Part shown: piece by piece, positions 1,051 to 31,178 of the stretch
Layout of the letters: each line of letters opens with the position of its first letter
Position numbering within the stretch: position 1 is the stretch's first letter
Source of the DNA: Haloquadratum walsbyi C23
Lineage (GTDB): Archaea > Halobacteriota > Halobacteria > Halobacteriales > Haloferacaceae
Assembly: GCF_000237865.1 (NCBI RefSeq)
Contig: NC_017459.1
Location: 1,020,001-1,052,000 of the forward strand
DNA length: 32,000 bases
Direction: 5' to 3'
Made by a program: the position numbers and the translations under genes
Notes under the pieces: model-generated
Told to the model about the DNA's origin: nothing
Seen by the model: the letters and a program-made list of their open reading frames with translations, nothing else
The model's database searches: none

Positions 1051-1106
1051 CCGCATGAATCGCTTCGGGTATTCGCCTCGACCGCCGATAAAATTTCAGC
1101 CAATGT

Positions 1107-1995
1107 ATCTCTGTTGAAATCCTCAGAGAGTTACATGTTCATCCTGTAATTCCACGAGATGAAGCCCCTCCCGAAGTCGCAAATTCTCCGTTTTACTGAG
1201 AAAGCGATCCGCCTGATCCGCCGAGTAGTCTCCCGGTACTTCTTGAAGTTCTCTAAACACCGCTATACACTTCCCCAACACGTTGTTCTGCTGTGTCTCA
1301 AAGTTCGGAAGAACACGATCTATCGTGGACCGCTTGACGAATTAATCGATATGCCACGCATCCGTCGTGTCCTCGTGTTAGCTGAACTTCCTACGCCATC
1401 AACGCCCTGTAAGACATTCTATCGACTTGATATGACCGTATGGCGTGTCTTATCGACTCTCTCCGTCACGCTACTTCAGACGAGCGGAGTTGTTGGGGTT
1501 GATACGTCAGGATTTGACCACAGTCACGCTTCGAAACACTACACGAAACAAGCCGAATTCACGATTTAGTAGCTCAAAGTAACGCTGCTGGTCGATGCGA
1601 AAGTGAACGCAATTCTCGACCTCCACGTGACGATGACTCGGAAACACGATAGCCAAATCGCTCCGTCGTTGGTTAAGGGCAACGCTGAGAGTATTGATGT
1701 TCTGCTCGGTAACAAAGGCCAGGACGACCAGAAAATCAGGCGACTTGCCCGGCAACACGAAGTTCGGTCACTGATCAAGCATCGTGAGTTCATATCGCTC
1801 CACAAGGCATGGAACACCTATTTAGACGCTGACGTTTAGGATTAACAGAGTCAATCACAGACGGTCAACTCTACGCTCAAGCGGAAATTTGATTCGTTCG
1901 CCCGCTCACGGCACTGGTGGAAATAGTTCCGTGAACTCACTATCGCTTGTCTCAGTCACAATATCGACCGATCACTCTGAATGGTCAAGACAGAT
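1107..1995 (+). mobile_element. Decayed IS5-family (ISH-type) insertion sequence; boundaries approximate
   Basis: Imperfect terminal inverted repeats: ATCTCTGTTGAAATCCTCAGAG (1107-1128) against the reverse complement of 1975-1995 (ATCTGTCTTGACCATTCAGAG). They enclose a transposase pseudogene. No clear target duplication was seen. Confidence 0.5.
1159..1980 (+). pseudogene. IS5-family DDE transposase pseudogene: one reading frame with five in-frame stops and no frameshift
   Basis: ORFs 1159..1569 and 1603..1839 and the following segment are all in frame 1. Stops are TAG TAG (1567-1572), TAG (1837), TAA (1843) and TAG (about 1924). The joined translation MKPLPKSQILRF..DTSGFDHSHASKHYTK..LKVTLLVDAKVNAILDLHVT..RKHDSQIAPSL..KHREF.SLHKAWN..TVNSTLKRKF..RHWWK*FRELTIACLSHNIDR matches, from memory, the common haloarchaeal ISH9-like IS5-type transposase. 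Confidence 0.8.
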
Positions 1996-3575: not shown

Positions 3576-5570
3576 TTAAATATCTGTAATCCGATCATAT
3601 TCTTTATTAATTGATTGTGCATCCTCAGGAAGCAATGCAACAACGAGATATTCGACATATTCAGAGAAGTATGAAATAAGTGCAGCGATTCGATTAGAAT
3701 CAATTGCCTCCAGTGAATCCAATAGCATAAACGGTACAGTCTCATGGAGATCATGTACAAGATATCCTGCAAGGGCAAAAATAAGTCCGGTGACCTCTCG
3801 CTCACTCTCACTGAGATGTTCAACAGTGTCTTCATACGCGGTTCCGCTTGCAGTCGTTCGGATTACATGAAGTTCAAACACCGTCTGTTCGACTTTCTGC
3901 CGCCCTGAGCGAACTTTATTTTGGGTCCGTTCAATCCAAATCCGATCAAGATTTTCATATGCAAGAATATCAAGAATTGATTCCATGTGCGCATTGAACT
4001 GTTCGACAGCCTCATGCTCAATCTGATCAATCTTCGTCCGCTCGTCCTCCAGTTGATTGACAATGGTTTTCCGTTCAGACTCAAGCGTATCGATACGATC
4101 AATTGCTGCTTCGATTGACTCAATCTTATTTGATACCGACTGATGATCCGACTCAAGTCGATTAATTTCAAACTCAACTTCGTTTGCTTCACGATGAAGT
4201 GAGAGTATATCTTCAAAGCTTTCAGACTCAAGCTCATCAACTTCAGTCTCAAGTGTCTCAATTGTCGCTGTCAGATCTTTTCGTTGTTCTTTGAGCGTCT
4301 CCAATTGCTTTTTCCGTTGGTCTATCTCTTGGGTGATGCGATTAATCGTGCTCTCAAGATCTGATCGACGCGTCTGTTCTGACTCAATTTCACGTTTTTC
4401 ACTCTTCAGTGAGTCAAGATCTGATTTCACATCATTGAGTGATTGGACACGGTCTGCCCGAACTGATTTCAACTGGTCGACTGTTGCCTCAATTTGTTCG
4501 CGATCGACTGCTGACCCACATGTCCAACATGTAACTGTTTCAGATCCTGTATTCTCATCAGCGAGTAACCGATCGGTAATCGCATCTGCTCCACTAGAAC
4601 TTTCTTCAGTGTCTGTTTTTGAATTAACATCGTCGCTAATACGCCCAATTACATTATACTCTCCATCCTCAAGTTGATCCTCGTTATACTGGATAAGATT
4701 TTGAAGTTGTGAAATCTCGGCATTGAGAGCCTGTCGGTCATCCCGAAGTGAATCAATCTGTTGTTCAAGACGTGTGAGTTTCGCTGCTGGCGTGCTTGAC
4801 AACTCTGAAAGTGCTGTTTTATTTTCTTCGTGTTCAGCCTGTAATGACTCAATACTCTCTCTTTGTGTCTCAATTTGTTGACGGATTGAATCTAGATCTG
4901 ACCGAGTCGATCGTAATTCATCCAATTTTGATTCCAGTTCAGCTTCTTTTTCTTGACTATCCGAAATATTCCGACTACTTTCATCAATTTCCGTCTCTTT
5001 TTTAGATAACTCTTCTCTTTTTTTAGATATTTTAGACTCAATATTCTTTTTTTGCTTTTCCAACTCAGGAAGTCCCTGCTTTTTCGACTCGATATCGGAT
5101 ATCTTCTCATCTATCTCCGACCTCTGTGATTCAAGCGACGATATTTTACGCTTAATTTCCTCGATGTCCACCGGCTCCATAATTATCTCGCGAAGGTCGG
5201 CGCTCCGAGAGACAGCACGGCGGGCATTATTTCCCTCAAGAAGAAATGCAAATCTTTCAGCAATATCCGGATCATCAAGATACGTATTACCGTCAAAAAT
5301 AACAGTATCATCGGTCTGAGACACAGTTCGTTGATATTCTGTTTCATCAAGCGTCAGTTCGACAATACCCTCATCAGCATCCGCCTTAAGAGTCGCTGCA
5401 TTGCTTCCCATCGCCGCCATTACCGCTTGTAAAAACGATGTTCGATTTGTTGCGTTCTCACCGGTTAACACAGTTACACCGGGTTCGATGACAACTGATG
5501 TTTCATCAATCCCACCGATATTCCTCACATGAAATTGTGCAGCGTCACTTACGGTCTGTGAAGTAGTCAT
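3576..5570 (-). CDS. sph: Archaea-specific SMC-related protein (Sph family)
   Basis: 664 aa. N-terminal head NIGGIDETSVVIEPGVTVLTGENATNRTSFLQAVMAAMGS. A long heptad-like E/K/S/L-rich coiled coil is interrupted by a CxxC hook-like motif (VTCWTCGSAVDREQIE). The C-terminal head is ..VPFMLLDSLEAIDSNRI... Confidence 0.85.
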   Translation of the reverse strand: MTTSQTVSDAAQFHVRNIGGIDETSVVIEPGVTVLTGENATNRTSFLQAVMAAMGSNAATLKADADEGIVELTLDETEYQRTVSQTDDTVIFDGNTYLDDPDIAERFAFLLEGNNARRAVSRSADLREIIMEPVDIEEIKRKISSLESQRSEIDEKISDIESKKQGLPELEKQKKNIESKISKKREELSKKETEIDESSRNISDSQEKEAELESKLDELRSTRSDLDSIRQQIETQRESIESLQAEHEENKTALSELSSTPAAKLTRLEQQIDSLRDDRQALNAEISQLQNLIQYNEDQLEDGEYNVIGRISDDVNSKTDTEESSSGADAITDRLLADENTGSETVTCWTCGSAVDREQIEATVDQLKSVRADRVQSLNDVKSDLDSLKSEKREIESEQTRRSDLESTINRITQEIDQRKKQLETLKEQRKDLTATIETLETEVDELESESFEDILSLHREANEVEFEINRLESDHQSVSNKIESIEAAIDRIDTLESERKTIVNQLEDERTKIDQIEHEAVEQFNAHMESILDILAYENLDRIWIERTQNKVRSGRQKVEQTVFELHVIRTTASGTAYEDTVEHLSESEREVTGLIFALAGYLVHDLHETVPFMLLDSLEAIDSNRIAALISYFSEYVEYLVVALLPEDAQSINKEYDRITDI

Positions 5571-6463
5571 TATCTTATATATCTGATAGACAAGTAAAAA
5601 ACTATTCTCTTTGTGATTTATTGTTAAATTATGGCTAAATGATTCAATGCGTGCTCACGTATTGTTTAGTATCAAACATAATGTAATATAATTGTGATTT
5701 GTCTCGGGATTAAGCCCCGTGGCAGTTGGTTTATATCGGATGTAAACATCAAGATGATTCATAAAACAACTGTAATGCTTGGAGAACACATATGATATTA
5801 AATACATATCGACAGAAGTATTTAGCGCTGATTATGAAACATGTGATATTATTATAATTAAACACATCATCATATCAATCCTGTCACTATCTGTGCAATT
5901 CGATTAAAATCTTATAACATACGTACTGTCGTTATTCCACCGTATAGAATGGACATCACGGATATTAACTGAAATAAATGAAACGTCTGGTCAAAAAATG
6001 GTATGAACATCTAATTTCGGGTAGAATTTATATATTATATCATGAAAATTAATATGAGATTCAGATGTGAATGTTATATCTATCCCTTAATCTATTATAT
6101 TTATGCAACTATCGAGGAAATAGCGAAAAATCCATGGGTCGCCCGATCTGTGGTCGTTTACTGCAATTTCATATCTAATGTGGTGGAGGAAAATCTGACA
6201 CATCGGAATAGACAGTCACGGAAAATAAACTCATAGTGATTACTTCGAATAGTTTCACTGACAGTGTCGAATGACGCGGGTTCAGCGGCTCCCATCGCCG
6301 ACACGGATAATCACGGCGGTAAAGACTTGCACTAATTACTATCAGTCGGTTACCCTCTCAGCATTCACAAAAGCGACCTTCCCACACAGTTAATTAGATA
6401 TCAAAGAGTCTTAACGATGTGAATATCCCACCACCACGCTCTAAACGAAAAGCAGCGCGAGTT

Positions 6464-6855
6464 CCCCGCCCCACCGTGGGCGGGGGTGAAGCTCGTACGC
6501 TCGGCTGCGTCCCATTTTTTTACTATCGGGACGCCCTACTATAGTTTGGAACCCACGTTATCGGCCTCGCAAAACCCGCGCACCCATTTTGGGGTAAGAC
6601 GCTGTGCGCCGGGTCTGTATCGCGCCCATGTGAAGGGGCGGACGCCCACGGACACGCCCGCCACGGCAGCAACAGACGACCTCTGTTGCGGTGGCACTTT
6701 TGGTGTGTTCGGGTGTTACTGGTTCCACGCGAGTCTCGCCAGAGACGAGCGCGGGCGGAATTAAAATTCGCCACCGGTCGTTTCGCTGGCTTCCCGCCAG
6801 AGACCACGGCGAAGCCACGGGCCACCGCGCCCGTGGTACTTCACATGGGTAACGG
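6464..6855 (+). repeat. Type A GC-rich hairpin-bounded non-coding element, copy A1
   Basis: 5' hairpin ccccgccc-caccgt-gggcgggg (6464-6485) followed by GTGAAGC. The 3' module is TTCGGGTGTTA, a stem-loop, GGAATTAAAATTCGCC, GAAGCC plus hairpin ccacggg-ccaccgcg-cccgtgg (6815-6836), then TACTTCACATGGGTAAC. This matches 29550-29718. A sampled line at 6601-6660 is about 73 percent GC, against about 23 percent at 5581-5640. Confidence 0.7.
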
Positions 6856-9795: not shown

Positions 9796-9814
9796 TACAT
9801 GCAAGTTCTTTAAT

Positions 9815-10353
9815 ATCCTCCTCCGGCTGAAGCCGGGAGGAATCCTACGGCACCGCACCGCTTCGCTGGGTTGGGAGTGTCAGCTTTGGATTTGGGTTTG
9901 AGTTTGGGTTTGGGTTTGCAGACTCCCAATACCAAGCCAGTCCACCGTCGGAATCGGTGTGTGACCGGTCACTGGGCAATCTCCAGGGAGTGCCACATCT
10001 CAGCCCCCGGTACTCCTATGCTCAACCGAGGTGAAGTCCCTGTATTGTTTTTTCCACAGGGGCTTCGGTCAGTGGTCGGCACTCGGGTTCACCGGACTCG
10101 GAGTTACTTGTATTGGTGACGAGAGCCCGACGGTTGTTGTTTGATCCCCACATGGGGCACACCCTGTTTCCAGCGTGGGCGGACACTCACACTCAAACCG
10201 CCACTTTTCGGGCACTCGGCTACATCGGGGTCAGAGCCAATACGACAATACTAGTACATACGCCGTTGTCAAAAAGCGGTTGGAAACCACAGTATGACGG
10301 CGCGTATCCATGCCGTGAACAGGTGTGGTATTGCGCCTGTACCATCTATACTA
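9815..10353 (+). repeat. Type B GC-rich non-coding element, copy B2 (the most complete copy)
   Basis: 5' hairpin cctccggc-tgaa-gccgggagg followed by GGAATCC. All family boxes are present and it is preceded by TTAAT (9810-9814). About 100 nt (10147-10235) are nearly identical to 846-935. Confidence 0.8.
9885..9920. repeat. Hexamer microsatellite (TTTGRR) x6 inside copy B2
   Basis: tttgga tttggg tttgag tttggg tttggg tttgca. It is enclosed by an 8-bp helix, ttgggagt (9871-9878) with actcccaa (9922-9929). Confidence 0.85.
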
Positions 10354-12094: not shown

Positions 12095-12299
12095 ACCCTA
12101 GCGTCGCTGGACGCATATATTATAACTTATATGACCTGCATATATCAGTCTGTACGGGTATAAGTAACATAATGACGACAGCGAAAAAAATCCTGCTTTA
12201 GGCGTTAATTATGAGTTCAGGCGACCTTCGAGAGCAGAGAAACTAGTGCAACTTAATTAAGCCACAGTTGCTTCATGAGCGTCCGCGCCTATATTTGAC

Positions 12300-12660
12300 A
12301 TCCTCTCCGCCCTGAAGGGCGAAGATTCCCACGGCACCGCGCCGCTGGATTGGGATGTTCAAGGTTTGTAGCCGCCTCGATGACGGCTCCTGGCTGTGCC
12401 AGCCAGCCGTTACTCCTATTCCGGCATGGGATTCGGAGGTACTTCTTACTGCACCCTGAGTTCCACAACAGAAAGGGGTGCTTTCTGCATGGAATCGGGG
12501 AATCCCGATATTGTCCGATTAGTGGGGCGGGTAGACCGCCTCGGTTATGTATCGATACGGCATCTCGTCAGTTAACCCATCCGTTCGACACGTCGAACGT
12601 GGTTCACGCAGGGGTTGTCGGATTCATCCCCGCCGTGTGGTGCTCCTGAAAACTTATTGA
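12300..12660 (+). repeat. Type B element, short rearranged variant (copy B3)
   Basis: Preceded by TTGAC (12295-12299). 5' hairpin tctccgccc-tgaa-gggcgaaga followed by GATTCC, then CACGGCACCGC..GGATTGGGATG, GTTACTCCTAT, and a 3' end GTGTGGTGCTCCTGAAAAC. It lacks the CCACATGGGGCACAC block. Confidence 0.6.
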
Positions 12661-13400
12661 GGAATTCAATCCAAAATCTTGTTATAGAGTAGCTGCTGAT
12701 ACCATTGCGTAGGACCTGTGATTCAAAATGTTTCACGGAGTACTAAACGGCGGGGCTTTCTCCTCGCACCGCCGTAAGCACGGGTCTTACCTGTGGAACT
12801 CTCGCTGTGTTGTTCAGAATAAATCTGTATTGTGACGTCTATTCTGCTTAATTTTGCATGTGATCAGCTTGCTCACTCAAAACGGATTAGCAATTAACGG
12901 GCACTTACCCTGTCCTCAAGCAATAAACTAACTGGAAGCGGGTGGCAGAGGCAGTCCGCTGAGAAGTACTTACTCGACCTGAAATGGATTTCGACTCTTG
13001 AGTTTTCAACGTTCGGCAATCACTGACCACATATCACGGCGACACAGTTCCTGATAGTCTCATGTTCCGGTTTGACAATTTTATATAGCGTTATTTGATT
13101 TATATATTGAATTTGATCATCAACTATCCCTCCAACTATATCGAATCTGTCTGGAGGTGATAACTTTAGTACCTAAGAGGCGCTAAGTCTCTGTCCTCAA
13201 GGGAAGAGCGAAGCGAGTGAGTAGGGTGGGAATACAGCGCCGTCATCACGCTATCATACAGTTCAACCAGTATATGTACTATCTTGTGTGCTTTCTGTGT
13301 TCCACACGATGCTCGCCACATTTTCAACAGTGTTCGAGTGCGACACAAAACACGTACTGATGGGTATGGTGGAGTGGCTATCCATGAGTGGGACACTTCG

Positions 13401-13541: not shown

Positions 13542-13680
13542 AATACAATCTGGCAAATACACTACGGGGTTACCGCTTTCAGTTAATTTATTTTTTTAAC
13601 ATTTCACTCGCGGTTGTACAAGTGGTTTGAGACAACTGCCTCGGGGCTTGGTCCTGGGGTGAGTTCACTAGCTGAGAACC

Positions 13681-27638: not shown

Positions 27639-27820
27639 TTCCTCGCTTGAATCAGGATTCTCTCTCAAAAATCGAGTCTATCTTTCTGCAAGGAGAGAAT
27701 CCCGCCGTTTTCCACGGGAGTAAATCCGATACTTCCCACACAATCCACCGTTGATGGCAGGCTAGATGTTCAACGCTAATCCACATCATTAAACAATTCT
27801 ACAGATTAACAGGCAGAGTG

Positions 27821-27899
27821 CCTCGGGGCTTGACCCCGAGGGTGAATGCCGTCACTATATGCCACAAATTTAATTATTTCTAGCGTTTCATACGGTGAC
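27821..27899 (+). repeat. Type A element copy A2, left part (interrupted by the IS4-family element)
   Basis: Hairpin cctcggggcttgaccccgagg (27821-27841) followed by GTGAATGC. The same 21-mer recurs at 29679-29699. Confidence 0.65.
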
Positions 27900-29409
27900 C
27901 TGTCGCGTTCTAAGTTCATAAAGCCCGGCGAAATTCTCTCCTAACGAACTGCTGGGTAAGAATCGTATGGGAGTTCACTCATCGAACAGTTGTCGGTGAA
28001 ATCCGTGTTGAGCCAAGAGAAGTAGCAGTTCAGGGAAAGAAATGATCAATGATCGCGGCACAGGCGACAGCCGTCGCTGGTGGGTGACGGCTGTCGCCGG
28101 GAAGTGAAGATTGATTAGCCGAATGAATCTAGCGTCTCATTCCAGAAGGTTCGAACTTTCTGGATAGCACGCGCCACGCCACCCCTGACTGGGTGGCGTT
28201 GGCGAAACCATACGACCAGCATATATCCAATCAATGCACAGAACAGCTCGAATAACACGCCGTTCAGCGATTTCGAGTGAAAGTTCTCGATGTTGAGGTA
28301 CTGTTTCCACTCTCGGAAGAGGATCTCAATTACTGTCCGTAGTGTGTATATGTTGATCACGTCGATTGGATCGTACTCTGACGACGCCAGCGTCGTCAGG
28401 TACTCAATCTCTTCTCCATCGGGTGTTTCCAGCACAATCCTGCGGAACTCTTCACCAGTCTCAGCTAATTCAATTCGTTCATCACGAACCCGTCGCGTTG
28501 ATTCCTCATCTGAGTGAGTCGGCTGAGCGGCGTTGTTCCCTGAGACGGTGACCTCGAACTCTTCGAGTGTCTCAATGAGTTCAAATCGAGCGTCTGAGTG
28601 CATCAGTGTGACAAAATCATTGTCACTATGCTTGATCTCACAGAACCGTAGATATCGCGTGTATGCGCGGTCAAAGACCCAGATTACCGAGTCGAGGTCT
28701 GCAAAGACCTCGACATCTTCCTTGAGGAGATCGAACTGCGGGCTTTCGTGGGTGTCGCCCTCTGTAACAGTAGCGTCGAGTGGATGTTTATTTTCTCCAT
28801 CCACACGTGCTGCGCAGTGAAGTTCGAGACCACCATCGTCTGTGTCGATCTTGTAGACCTTGTCGTCGTCTCCGACGAACTCGTCTGAGACGACAACAGA
28901 GCGCGTAAGTTCGAGGTTTGTGGCATCAACAGCGACGACATCTCGTGTCATCCACTGCAGTCGTTTTCGTTGAACTCCACGTTGATGATACAACTGTGGT
29001 GTGTGCAGTACTTCGAAGAGGAGCTGAACGACCGCGCAGTAGTCGCGGTCGTTCGTGAGTTCTGAAAACCGTGATTTAGGCATGTGTTCGAGTGAGTCGT
29101 CGACAATGGTCTTATCCTCAAGTTCAGCGAGTGAGCTGGAGGGGTCAAGACCCTCACGAACAGCCGTCTTGACGTGGTTCGTGAAGTCGTGTTTGTCGGA
29201 ATGGAGCCCAATCTTGAATTCATCGGCAATCGACTCGCTGTCGACTTCGTCGAGCAGCGAGTACATTTCGTCAGCGACGAGATCAGTAGAATTGATATTA
29301 GAGGCGTCCGTTACGTCTTCTGACGGCCTGTTTGGTGAATCAAATTGCACAGACATTACGGGCCGTCACTAACGGCTCACGCCGTTTTTATATACTCAGA
29401 ACGCGACAG
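27900..29409 (-). mobile_element. Intact IS4-family insertion sequence (1510 bp) with a 9-bp target site duplication
   Basis: Terminal inverted repeats CTGTCGCGTTCTAAGT (27900-27915) and the reverse complement of 29394-29409 (CTGTCGCGTTCTGAGT). Direct repeat TACGGTGAC at 27891-27899 and 29410-29418. Confidence 0.85.
28115..29356 (-). CDS. IS4-family DDE transposase
   Basis: 413 aa with D regions VVAVDATNL and VIWVFDRAY, and the IS4 signature Y(2)R(3)E(6)K in YTLRTVIEILFREWK. Confidence 0.85.
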   Translation of the reverse strand: MSVQFDSPNRPSEDVTDASNINSTDLVADEMYSLLDEVDSESIADEFKIGLHSDKHDFTNHVKTAVREGLDPSSSLAELEDKTIVDDSLEHMPKSRFSELTNDRDYCAVVQLLFEVLHTPQLYHQRGVQRKRLQWMTRDVVAVDATNLELTRSVVVSDEFVGDDDKVYKIDTDDGGLELHCAARVDGENKHPLDATVTEGDTHESPQFDLLKEDVEVFADLDSVIWVFDRAYTRYLRFCEIKHSDNDFVTLMHSDARFELIETLEEFEVTVSGNNAAQPTHSDEESTRRVRDERIELAETGEEFRRIVLETPDGEEIEYLTTLASSEYDPIDVINIYTLRTVIEILFREWKQYLNIENFHSKSLNGVLFELFCALIGYMLVVWFRQRHPVRGGVARAIQKVRTFWNETLDSFG

Positions 29410-29718
29410 TACGGTGACAACGACCAGACACAACCCATCAAAGTATGGAAATGAAGATCTCATTTCCTTCGCTGGTCGTTTGACAGTTTGGAAATGTGGC
29501 CCCTCTCAAAATCCGCTACTATGGTGGTGCGACGGGGGTTTCAACGGGCGGAGTGAAGCCGCCGACCTCCACGGACTCCTCGCGGAGTTCGGGTGTTAAT
29601 TCCAGCCGACCCCTCACGGGGAAGGTCGGAGGGAATTAAATTCGCCTGCGGGTGCTGTGCAGACCCCAAACGGTGAAGCCTCGGGGCTTGACCCCGAGGT
29701 ACTTCACCTGGATAACCC
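29410..29718 (+). repeat. Type A element copy A2, right part including the conserved 3' module
   Basis: TTCGGGTGTTA, stem-loop ccgacc-cccctcacgggg-aa-ggtcgg, GGAATTAAATTCGCC, GAAGCC plus hairpin (29679-29699), TACTTCACCTGGATAAC. Collinear with 6700-6855. Confidence 0.7.
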
Positions 29719-30030: not shown

Positions 30031-30155
30031 GTATGCGGGGAGGATGTCACACACAGGTATACTTCCTCGATATCCTCCCAACAGAATCTTCTTTCCAGTG
30101 CTTGGTGAATCGGCGAGTATTTTTATACCATACACGTGAGTGATGATGAAGAGAG

Positions 30156-30645: not shown

Positions 30646-31178
30646 ATCCTTCTCCGCGTGAGTGCGAAGGAATCCCGGAGCGTGAGTGATGGAGATCGCA
30701 GGGTTGCAGTCTCATCAGGTATCCAGATGGTGAGAATCCGTCCGGACTTCTGGACCGTGGCGAGTGGGGATGGACTGCTGGGAGTGCCACATCTCAGCTC
30801 TCGATACTCCTCTCCTCAATCATATCTACACTCCCGAAGTTGTTTGTGCCTTTGGAGGGGGCTGGCAGACTTCGACGGACTTGGGTTTACATTTTGATAT
30901 TTAGAGTAGTCAAGCACAGCATCGATTCAGTATCAGAACCGACCGTTCATATGACTGGCTCCGATTATCGTCCCATTGCTCGGAGCGGACAGAACTTCAC
31001 CGTCGGACGGGGTGGGAATCGCTCTACTCTCGCCTGATTCCTACTTTGTCAATATGTTGCCTGTCTACTCCATAGCACTCAAATCTCAGTTTAGCTGCAT
31101 CACGTGGATAGGTTCCCACGTGACGGCGCATATCCACGACTCGAAGACCGTGGTATTGTGCCTGTCCATCATATAATA
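30646..31178 (+). repeat. Type B GC-rich non-coding element, copy B4
   Basis: Begins 8 nt after the folA stop and is preceded by TTGGC (30641-30645). 5' hairpin ccttc-tc-cgc-gtgagt-gcg-gaagg followed by GAATCC. Contains GGGAGTGCCACATCTCAGC..GATACTCCTC (nearly identical to 9986-10018) and a 3' box GACGGCGCATATCCACG..CGTGGTATTGTGCCTGT. Confidence 0.7.

Follow-up and report, generated by a model that had tools for sequence, protein, structure and literature searches.

A 32,000-nucleotide stretch of the Haloquadratum walsbyi C23 genome (RefSeq assembly GCF_000237865.1, contig NC_017459.1, positions 1,020,001 to 1,052,000 of the forward strand), referred to below as the window and numbered from its first letter, carries two short gene-less mobile elements, A1 and A2, together called type A. 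Their termini are letter for letter those of published elements (A1 those of HqIRS44, A2 those of HqIRS46; Table S9, PMC3119063) and, judged by these ends, they are therefore already catalogued mobile elements of the haloarchaea, namely the palindrome-associated transposable elements (PATEs) HqIRS44 (A1) and HqIRS46 (A2) of H. walsbyi. PATEs are gene-less repeats with near-terminal palindromes, without inverted terminal repeats or target duplication, that are related to IS605-type transposons (Dyall-Smith 2011, PMC3119063, where HqIRS44 and HqIRS46 are entered in Tables S8 and S9). The first-pass annotation of the window had described the pair as hairpin-ended, non-autonomous and PATE-like, with which the published termini agree, and had drawn attention to a 150-nt module containing two hairpins at their 3' ends. 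This module is real and shared, and is just part of a larger fold of the sense strand, which is maintained by compensatory changes and under purifying selection across haloarchaea. The features of A1 are the following:

6440-6444, plus strand: target pentanucleotide TCTAA, an IS200/IS605 insertion site and presumed target-adjacent motif (TAM); the HqIRS44 targeting sequence in Table S9 of PMC3119063.
6445-6844, plus strand: A1, a complete 400-bp HqIRS44-type PATE with no open reading frame (ORF), no terminal inverted repeats and no target duplication (alignment of 14 copies).
6464-6492, plus strand: left-end subterminal hairpin CCCCGCCC-CACCGT-GGGCGGGG (6464-6485) followed by GTGAAGC; presumed TnpA site, read from the sequence.
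6507-6534, plus strand: hairpin GCGTCCC/GGGACGC, the loop of which is the AT-rich patch ATTTTTTTACTATC (6514-6527), a candidate archaeal TATA box.
6555-6844, plus strand: structured region homologous to omega RNA (nhmmer profile, sub-threshold Rfam sot2652 match, folding z-score), with the first-hairpin motif CTCGCAAAACCC at 6566-6577.
6623-6640, plus strand: second hairpin CGCCC/GGGCG with loop ATGTGAAG; the stem covaries and the loop is nearly invariant.
6708-6718, plus strand: linker TTCGGGTGTTA, the start of the 150-nt module and the 3' strand of helix CGGACAC/GTGTTCG.
6723-6760, plus strand: stem-loop 1, CGCG-A-GTCTC ... GAGAC-GAG-CGCG (6728-6753), closed by TTCC/GGAA and supported by covariation.
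6757-6772, plus strand: linker GGAATTAAAATTCGCC, in which TTCGCC (6767-6772) pairs with GGCGAA (6808-6813).
6776-6805, plus strand: spacer hairpin GGTC..CTGGC-TTCCC-GCCAG..GACC, a sub-threshold match to the penultimate sot2652 hairpin.
6815-6836, plus strand: stem-loop 2 (CCACGGGC-CACCGC-GCCCGTGG), the subterminal hairpin of the right end; presumably a TnpA site and the final stem of the scaffold.
6837-6844, plus strand: tail TACTTCAC, the final bases of the element, where similarity among copies ends; the flank from 6845 would be the guide.

A2 is interrupted by a foreign insertion sequence (IS) and is arranged as follows:

27798-27802, plus strand: target pentanucleotide TCTAC, the HqIRS46 targeting sequence in Table S9 and the flank of most A2-type copies.
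27803-27899, plus strand: 5' part of A2 (HqIRS46 type), with the left-end hairpin 22-mer (27820-27841), GTGAATGC and an AT-rich patch.
27900-29418, minus strand: foreign DDE-transposase IS (27900-29409; ORF 28115-29356, minus) and the second copy of its 9-bp duplication (29410-29418).
29419-29707, plus strand: 3' part of A2, with the structured region from 29491, the pseudoknot loop GTGAAG at 29553-29558 and the 150-nt module's counterpart at 29588-29707.
Right end of A2, plus strand: right-end hairpin 22-mer (29678-29699) and transposon-encoded motif (TEM) CTTCAC (29702-29707).

The boundaries of both elements follow from their relatives. A three-anchor exact pattern search of representative genomes returned 86 loci, all in Halobacteria and spread over at least 25 genera (no Haloquadratum record is among them), which have sharp boundaries throughout and fall into three subfamilies, A1-like, A2-like and a third. 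Among 81 aligned copies, similarity breaks off precisely after ...GGTACTTCAC, so that TGG-TAAC, first taken for the end of the element, is flanking sequence; apart from it, the flanks of A1 and A2 are unrelated. Near-identical A1-type copies at unrelated loci (alignment, n=14) place the 5' boundary 19 nt ahead of the 5' hairpin, and A1 therefore extends over 6445-6844, preceded by TCTAA at 6440-6444, rather than over 6464-6855 as proposed before the copies were aligned; A2, given previously as 27821-27899 plus 29410-29718, is likewise corrected to 27803-27899 plus 29419-29707. The 5' flank of the A1-type copies is TCTAA in 11 of the 14, with the other three one base off (TCTAT in L074, CCTAA in L039, and TCTAA-C instead of TCTAA-A in L066), and in most A2-type copies it is TCTAC; sequence further upstream (A1-type) and the 3' flanks are unrelated between copies. 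The 11-mer CTTCCCACACA occurs at 6378-6388 and 27733-27743, 76-78 nt upstream of the 5' hairpins of A1 and A2, in flanks that are otherwise dissimilar, and is probably a chance repeat, as the TGG-TAAC common to both downstream flanks is likewise taken to be.

So delimited, the elements are 400 and 386 bp (A2 joined), too short for a transposase and without a conserved ORF, and carry a palindrome near each end, with no terminal inverted repeats. They lie 3' of TCTAA or TCTAC with no target duplication, their ends are related to those of tnpA- and/or tnpB-encoding IS200/IS605 elements, and multiple copies occupy unrelated sites, all of which is characteristic of PATEs. They do not resemble miniature inverted-repeat transposable elements, as the ends of A1 and A2 are not mutual inverted repeats and the flanks are not duplicated, nor an IStron or self-splicing intron, no group I or II intron family in Rfam matching up to E = 10. 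As published, HqIRS44 reads TCTAA / ACGAAAAGCAGCGCGAGTTCCCCGCCCCACCGTGGGCGGGGGTGAAGCTC ... GCGAAGCCACGGGCCACCGCGCCCGTGGTACTTCAC, the same as A1, and HqIRS46 reads TCTAC / AGATTAACAGGCAGAGTGCCTCGGGG ... TACTTCAC with an exact 22-bp repeat, the same as A2; lengths are similar (A1 400 bp, against a published 405-406 bp), and the elements themselves are otherwise no different. The repeat in A2 is the 22-mer GCCTCGGGGCTTGACCCCGAGG, identical and in direct orientation near both ends (27820-27841 and 29678-29699), as had been noticed from the 5' and 3' hairpins. A1 had also been described as a GC-rich island of 73% in DNA of 23%; it is indeed richer (63%) than its 400-nt flanks (41% and 31%) and the window (47%), and the original contrast was too sharp.

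Full-length identity of A1 to copies in Natrinema, Salinibaculum, Haloarcula, Halococcoides and Halovenus is 90-92%, and the joined A2 is 92.7% identical to a copy in Natronomonas aquatica, with the next-closest A2-type copies at 75-82%. Mobility is indicated by copies at unrelated sites with upstream genes unlike one another, and strain-specific PATE insertions are on record (PMC3119063). An A1-type PATE lies within a PAS/histidine-kinase gene of a Haloarcula metagenome-assembled genome (L046, ~4223-4359 minus strand and upstream), where a 781-codon reading frame passes from the kinase gene into the PATE. A scan of viral contigs with the module returned nothing.

The structured region, of which the module forms the 3' half, is 220-290 nt long, being ~220-230 nt in A2-type and ~290 nt in A1-type copies. 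Its fold comprises, in order, a first hairpin with the CUCNCAAAACCC motif; a second hairpin with a loop GUGRAG that pairs to the terminal CUUCAC; a junction with stem-loop 1; the helix UUCGCC/GGYGAA around a variable spacer hairpin; the right-end hairpin; and an 8-nt tail. The order of motifs first read from the module, TTCGGGTGTTA, stem-loop 1, GGAATTAAA(A)TTCGCC, spacer, GAAGCC, stem-loop 2 and TACTTCAC, is present in A1 (6708-6844) and A2 (29588-29707), and the 3' motif GGTACTTCACNTGGNTAAC occurs exactly twice, once in each copy, against a chance expectation of 0.05.

The proposal that the two hairpins of the module covary was upheld in 74 distinct copies representing all three subfamilies, in which 97.7% of cells are paired compared with 84.5% in shuffles, and 122 cells carry two-sided changes compared with 24.5 (0/500 shuffles reach this value); sliding the partners by 1-3 columns reduces pairing to 38-58%. 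Two-sided changes affect 6 of the 9 pairs of stem-loop 1 and 4 of the 8 pairs of stem-loop 2. The register first drawn for the outer stem of the A2 stem-loop 1 (CCGACC/GGTCGG) accounts for the variation at column 146 less well than does GCC/GGU plus CC/GG. The whole fold has nine helices with 58 pairs; in 49 A2-type sequences 98.4% of its cells are paired as against 93.4% in shuffles, with two-sided changes at 20 pairs versus 11.1 ± 1.6 (0/500) and only 41-50% pairing when partners are slid by 1-3 columns. G-U pairs account for ~14% of the paired cells in a tally of the same 49 sequences, several being nearly invariant, and this share places the fold on the sense strand; the folding z-score is -3.1 for the sense and -2.1 for the antisense strand.

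Individual helices are consistent with this picture. CGGACAC/GTGTTCG covaries, one pair being AU in 29 copies, GC in 16 and UA in 2, and its 3' strand, the linker TTCGGGTGTTA, is invariant in the retrieved copies but formed part of the search pattern. One pair of TTCGCC/GGCGAA alternates between GU (39) and GC (8), as fits RNA pairing, and the spacer hairpin differs between subfamilies in sequence and length. The AT-rich patch keeps its position in all A1-type copies, and a comparable patch lies upstream of the structured region in A2-type copies. A protein-coding reading of the module was considered and rejected: indels between copies are not multiples of three and break the frame, and translation of the frame that is open through the PATE finds 40 short orphan 'hypothetical proteins' that share no domain, none of them fused to TnpB.

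A further element of the fold is a pseudoknot. In the second hairpin the stem covaries, whereas the loop, UGGUGGAG, hardly varies and is complementary to the last six bases of the element; in A1 the partners are GTGAAG (6630-6635) and CTTCAC (6839-6844), and GUGRAG and CUUCAC pair in 49/49 sequences. Such pairing between the loop of a second hairpin and the TEM has been defined for haloarchaeal (Halobacterium) omega RNAs (PMC12558985). The loops and tails of four families can be compared:

Type A PATEs: loop GUGRAG, tail CUUCAC.
ISNph8-like elements (L172, L173): loop GUGGAC or GUGAAC, tail GUUCAC.
sot2652-type elements (L087, L088): loop GUAAGC, tail GUUUAC.
L090/L093 family: loop GUGGCA, tail UGUCAC.

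Cognate loops and tails pair at 6/6 positions in all four families, so that loop and tail covary between families, and non-cognate combinations give 3-5 pairs, except that ISNph8-like loops reach 6/6 with the sot2652 tail through a G-U pair. As few as 4 to 16 of the 4096 hexamers can match a given tail at 6/6, and a full match at the aligned loop position is therefore unlikely to arise by chance. In sot2652 the Rfam structure has a 4-nt loop, and two of the six pairs would need the closing pair to be opened. The L093 family alone is uninformative on pseudoknot covariation, loop and tail being nearly invariant there.

The conserved region also has relatives among elements that carry tnpB. An nhmmer profile covering the final 260 nt of the PATEs picks out the 3' coding end of tnpB and the right end of two ISNph8-like, IS1341-type elements with tnpB only, L172 (Natrinema thermotolerans, CP031304 843103-844415; E = 3e-8) and L173 (Natronorubrum aibiense; 2e-6), on the same strand and collinear with the right-end match; homology to the first and second PATE hairpins extends over ~95 nt at the 3' coding end of tnpB, and the linker TTCGGGTGTTA corresponds to GTGTCGCGGGTGT just ahead of the tnpB stop codon in L172. 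These elements share with type A a related left-end hairpin followed by GTGAAGC and the same pseudoknot logic (loop GTGGAC or GTGAAC, tail GTTCAC), and the right-end hairpin of L172 is identical to that of A1, as is that of the Haloplanus tnpB element L175 to the one in A2. They differ from type A in coding for a 423-aa TnpB, in the tail GGTTCAC and in having neither stem-loop 1 nor the AATTAAATTCGCC linker nor the spacer hairpin. Over its first 56 nt, A1 shares 98% identity with the left end of L087, a tnpA/tnpB IS605 element on a Natronorubrum aibiense plasmid that is likewise preceded by TCTAA, and the Rfam model sot2652 scores 169.5 bits on the 3' end of L087.

At gathering thresholds no Rfam family matches in the window. 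Below threshold, sot2652 aligns with its own structure to hairpins 1 and 2 of A2-type copies (28-29 bits, E ~0.006-0.008) and to the last two hairpins of A1 (19 bits). Type A and sot2652 (RF02657; PMC4615843, PMC12558985) both occupy the 3' end of an element and stop at its right-end boundary, and both have a first hairpin with the CUCNCAAAACCC motif, a second-hairpin loop that pairs with the TEM, a small penultimate hairpin and a right-end hairpin with the same loop. Type A differs in having no overlapping tnpB ORF, in an extra junction (stem-loop 1, GGAATTAAATTCGCC and the helix UUCGCC/GGYGAA), in a TEM of CUUCAC instead of GUUUAC, and in scores of 19-29 bits against a gathering score of 61.

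On the strength of the profile and sot2652 matches, the conserved region is related to the omega-RNA region (also termed sotRNA) of IS1341-type elements. As in omega RNAs, it lies at the 3' end of the element and its conservation ends exactly at the right-end boundary, leaving the flank available as a guide, and it is homologous to the tnpB-linked omega-RNA region of L172 and L173 and, more weakly, to sot2652; overlap with, or a position following, a tnpB 3' end is absent, type A being a tnpB-less derivative by definition. The first-pass annotation had seen in the module the layout of an IS200/IS605 right end or omega-RNA scaffold, which is now supported by the ISNph8-like profile match, the sot2652 alignment, the loop-TEM pseudoknot and the G-U pairs. 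It had also warned that the module might prove to be coding in intact relatives. This holds only in a benign form that is expected of omega RNA, in that tnpB coding sequence there is the counterpart of the structured region's 5' half; the module itself belongs to no real protein family.

TnpA binds the top-strand subterminal hairpins of IS200/IS605 elements and inserts the element 3' of a short target, and TnpB uses an RNA that ends in a guide sequence derived from the flank. Against this background it is considered likely that A1 and A2 are tnpB-less IS1341-type IS200/IS605 derivatives of 386-400 bp that are moved by TnpA and whose transcript guides TnpB, both proteins acting in trans. Such elements would have lost the tnpB ORF and retained the left end, a probable promoter patch and the entire 3' region that specifies the omega RNA. 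The Y1 transposase TnpA of a full-length relative would excise and insert the top strand in trans via the two end hairpins; transcription would start from the element's own AT-rich patch (6514-6527 in A1) and continue past the right end into flanking DNA; a TnpB encoded by a related IS would load the PATE RNA in trans; and, so guided, it would cut empty sites adjacent to the TAM, as a result of which the PATE would be retained or copied back. Both transcription of type A elements and use of their RNA by TnpB are predictions from sequence. Precedents exist in a general statement by Meers et al. (2023, PMC10055086), according to whom PATEs 'often encode omega RNAs' for use in trans, and in the expression of a PATE-derived RNA in Halobacterium (Gomes-Filho 2015, PMC4615843).

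Several observations weigh against this interpretation. No same-strand tnpB was found beside any copy among the 86 genome loci and eight plasmid matches whose annotation was inspected, and a collection of 5.8 billion proteins contains no TnpB with a C-terminus matching the translated module, so that the tnpB-attached copies for which a search had been recommended did not turn up in any of the three sets. Stem-loop 1, the GGAATTAAATTCGCC linker, the TTCGCC/GGYGAA helix and the spacer hairpin are absent from the tnpB-linked L172 and L173; with the module proper missing from the closest tnpB-linked relatives, compatibility with TnpB is therefore putative. Neither A1 nor the A2-type copies reach the sot2652 (RF02657) gathering score of 61 bits. 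In H. walsbyi, tnpB is reported to be mostly, and tnpA nearly always, disrupted (PMC3119063). Lastly, the top strand is also handled by TnpA, and strand specificity alone cannot separate an RNA fold from a fold of single-stranded DNA.

The same-strand ORFs upstream of the 86 loci are unrelated host genes (permease, ATPase, histidine kinases) that end at the 5' boundary of the element. One apparent case of linkage was set aside. In L090 (Natribaculum luteum), a TnpB gene lies 140 nt upstream of a module copy; 79 metagenomic relatives of this TnpB (86-93% identical) have their right end at ...GGAGGATGTCAC, 70-110 nt past the stop codon, after which flanks diverge, and sister species have the truncated module without the IS, from which it follows that L090 contains two neighbouring elements. 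The viral contig collection holds no relative of the L090 TnpB. In L174, the TnpB annotated 'under the match' is a convergent gene on the opposite strand. Three further partial plasmid matches have no tnpB nearby, and the other plasmid matches are PATE-sized.

It could be argued that the fold is a single-stranded DNA structure serving TnpA-mediated excision and integration only, with no RNA function. IS200/IS605 transposition does use top-strand hairpins near both ends, on the same strand as the fold; CTTCAC has a second possible partner in the GTGAAG immediately 5' of the right-end hairpin, a pairing shown in Table S9 (PMC3119063); and RNAalifold, given the isolated module, draws the inner four of these pairs, GAAG with CTTC. 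However, the covarying helices span 220-290 nt, well past the end hairpins, several G-U pairs are conserved in nearly all copies, and the tail covaries between families with the distal loop and not with the hairpin-adjacent bases. The interior is, moreover, homologous to a region transcribed as sotRNA/omega RNA in Halobacterium, and 52-bp terminal-only versions are found as strain-specific insertions in Haloquadratum; in the opinion of the authors of PMC3119063 so short an element may be mobilized, in which case the interior is not needed for movement. A purely DNA-level fold is accordingly regarded as quite improbable. Far more so is the idea that type A elements are functionless, decaying remnants of a tnpB 3' end whose likeness reflects recent spread: the 90-92% identity of A1-type copies across genera does suggest recent horizontal spread, and core deletions frequently turn IS605-type elements into PATEs (PMC3119063), yet A2-type copies only 75-82% identical to A2 keep 98% of paired cells paired with many two-sided changes, and loop and linkers are invariant while stems vary.

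An unlikely alternative, which nevertheless would best explain the type-A-specific part, is a structured non-coding RNA that does not guide TnpB, whether a decoy titrating TnpA/TnpB or a small RNA domesticated by the host, with stem-loop 1, linker and spacer hairpin as its specific functional domain. A decoy role was proposed by Gomes-Filho et al. (PMC4615843), who also reported a growth effect on overexpressing sotRNA and PATE-derived RNA; tnpB is linked to no copy; and the type-A-specific domain, with its invariant single-stranded linkers, is absent from tnpB-linked relatives. On the other hand, the TEM pseudoknot is preserved and conservation stops exactly where the transposon does, both of which are guide-positioning features, and the copies lie at unrelated loci, including one inside a gene, as would be expected for selfish DNA but not for a gene of the host.

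Stem-loop 1, the GGAATTAAATTCGCC linker and the spacer hairpin, none of which occurs in any tnpB-linked relative examined, seem to be confined to type A. It is conceivable, if rather doubtful, that this type-A-only junction (stem-loop 1, the single-stranded and invariant UUCGGGUGUUA and GGAAUUAAAUUCGCC, and a variable hairpin enclosed by the UUCGCC/GGYGAA helix) forms a PATE-specific RNA domain of self-promoted 'guide-RNA-only' parasites with an expanded scaffold, which would either displace resident omega RNAs in competition for TnpB or engage another partner. Were this true, the spread over at least 25 haloarchaeal genera without a linked nuclease gene would be explained.

The elements themselves (2011) and the idea of PATE-borne omega RNAs (2023) were already known. 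HqIRS44 and HqIRS46 were filed as separate families in PMC3119063, which notes their likeness only 'at the very 3' end' and is silent on a shared internal fold and on any relation to omega RNA; in a full-text search, HqIRS46 was named by that paper alone. What appears to be new is that HqIRS44- and HqIRS46-type PATEs share one homologous omega-RNA-like fold including the pseudoknot, that this fold has an extra domain absent from the tnpB-linked relatives examined, and that these PATEs occur in at least 25 haloarchaeal genera with no linked tnpB. Two other groups of PATEs provide useful comparisons. Those of Geobacillus stearothermophilus (PMC10055086) are also gene-less IS200/IS605 derivatives with the ends of autonomous elements, but are bacterial, IS605-type and unrelated in sequence, and the statement that their omega RNAs act in trans is itself inferential in that source. 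VNG_R0052 of Halobacterium salinarum (Gomes-Filho 2015) is a transcribed haloarchaeal PATE with a right-end-like hairpin; at 99 nt it consists of fused left and right ends and lacks an internal scaffold, which type A keeps in full.

The analysis refines an annotation and describes no new kind of system, tying a catalogue entry of 2011 (then 'non-coding repeats') to current IS200/IS605 biology, in which abundant gene-less elements would keep a complete guide-RNA scaffold, pseudoknot included. If TnpB uses the RNA in trans, PATEs would be hitch-hikers on two enzymes, relying on TnpA for movement and TnpB for retention; PATE flanks would then report natural TnpB targets, and guide engineering for archaeal TnpB nucleases could draw on the compact scaffold variants.

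The IS within A2 measures 1510 bp and is bounded by 23-nt inverted repeats (CTGTCGCGTTCT...); its minus strand encodes a 413-aa transposase (Pfam DDE_Tnp_1 at 2e-20), and its 9-bp target duplication, TACGGTGAC, lies at 27891-27899 and 29410-29418. It parts the putative promoter patch from the RNA body, and this copy is therefore probably inactive as an RNA gene. It is also a case of mobile elements landing in other mobile elements. Sequences resembling an HqIRS54-type left end, GGAGAGAATCCCGCCGTTTTCCACGGGAGTAAATCC, upstream of A2 and a right end, ...GCGGGGAGGATGTCAC, downstream (27687-27745 and 30035-30050) suggest that A2 may itself lie inside an older, decayed element with no recognisable scaffold in its interior.

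Additional PATEs are present in the window. An HqIRS54-type copy at 12295-12775 (minus strand; target TTAC, left end GGCGGTGCGAGGAGAAAGCCCCGCCG, right end ...GGGCGGAGAGGATGTCAA) has its left-end hairpin split by an unrelated ~110-nt insert, like the 'small mobile repeats' reported to target PATE palindromes, and its second-hairpin loop CTGGCA pairs with the tail TGTCAA at just 5/6 positions. Two copies that are ~79% identical and have HqIRS56-like ends (left end ...GGCGCAATACCAC...GGATACGCGCCGTCA) lie at ~540-1048 and 9812-10346 (minus), the one at 9812 having a degenerate tail, GGATATTAA, and a fragment lies at 30775-30819. At 13612-13675 there is a degenerate ~55-bp terminal-only remnant, with hairpin GCCTCGGGGCTTGGTCCTGGGG followed by TGAGTTCAC, that resembles the 52-bp core-deleted PATEs of Haloquadratum.

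Elsewhere, hairpin-rich inserts of ~47-60 nt (e.g., TCGTACGGAAATCGAAGATTTCCGTGATGACGAGA...TCTCGAACCAC) sit precisely in PATE hairpin loops in many genera, like the SMR-A repeats reported in Haloquadratum. They occupy the left-end hairpin loop in L001, L020, L023, L024, L040, L052, L060, L063 and L077, the A1-type left-end loop in L032 and L039, the interior in L071 and L074, and a linker in L092. Ends of IS200/IS605-type elements also seem to cluster: in L005 the 3' end of an A2-type PATE is directly adjoined by a remnant of a sot0042-like right end/omega RNA (1076-1245, minus strand; 33 bits, E = 2e-5, sub-gathering), and in L174 a PATE abuts the 3' end of the convergent tnpB.

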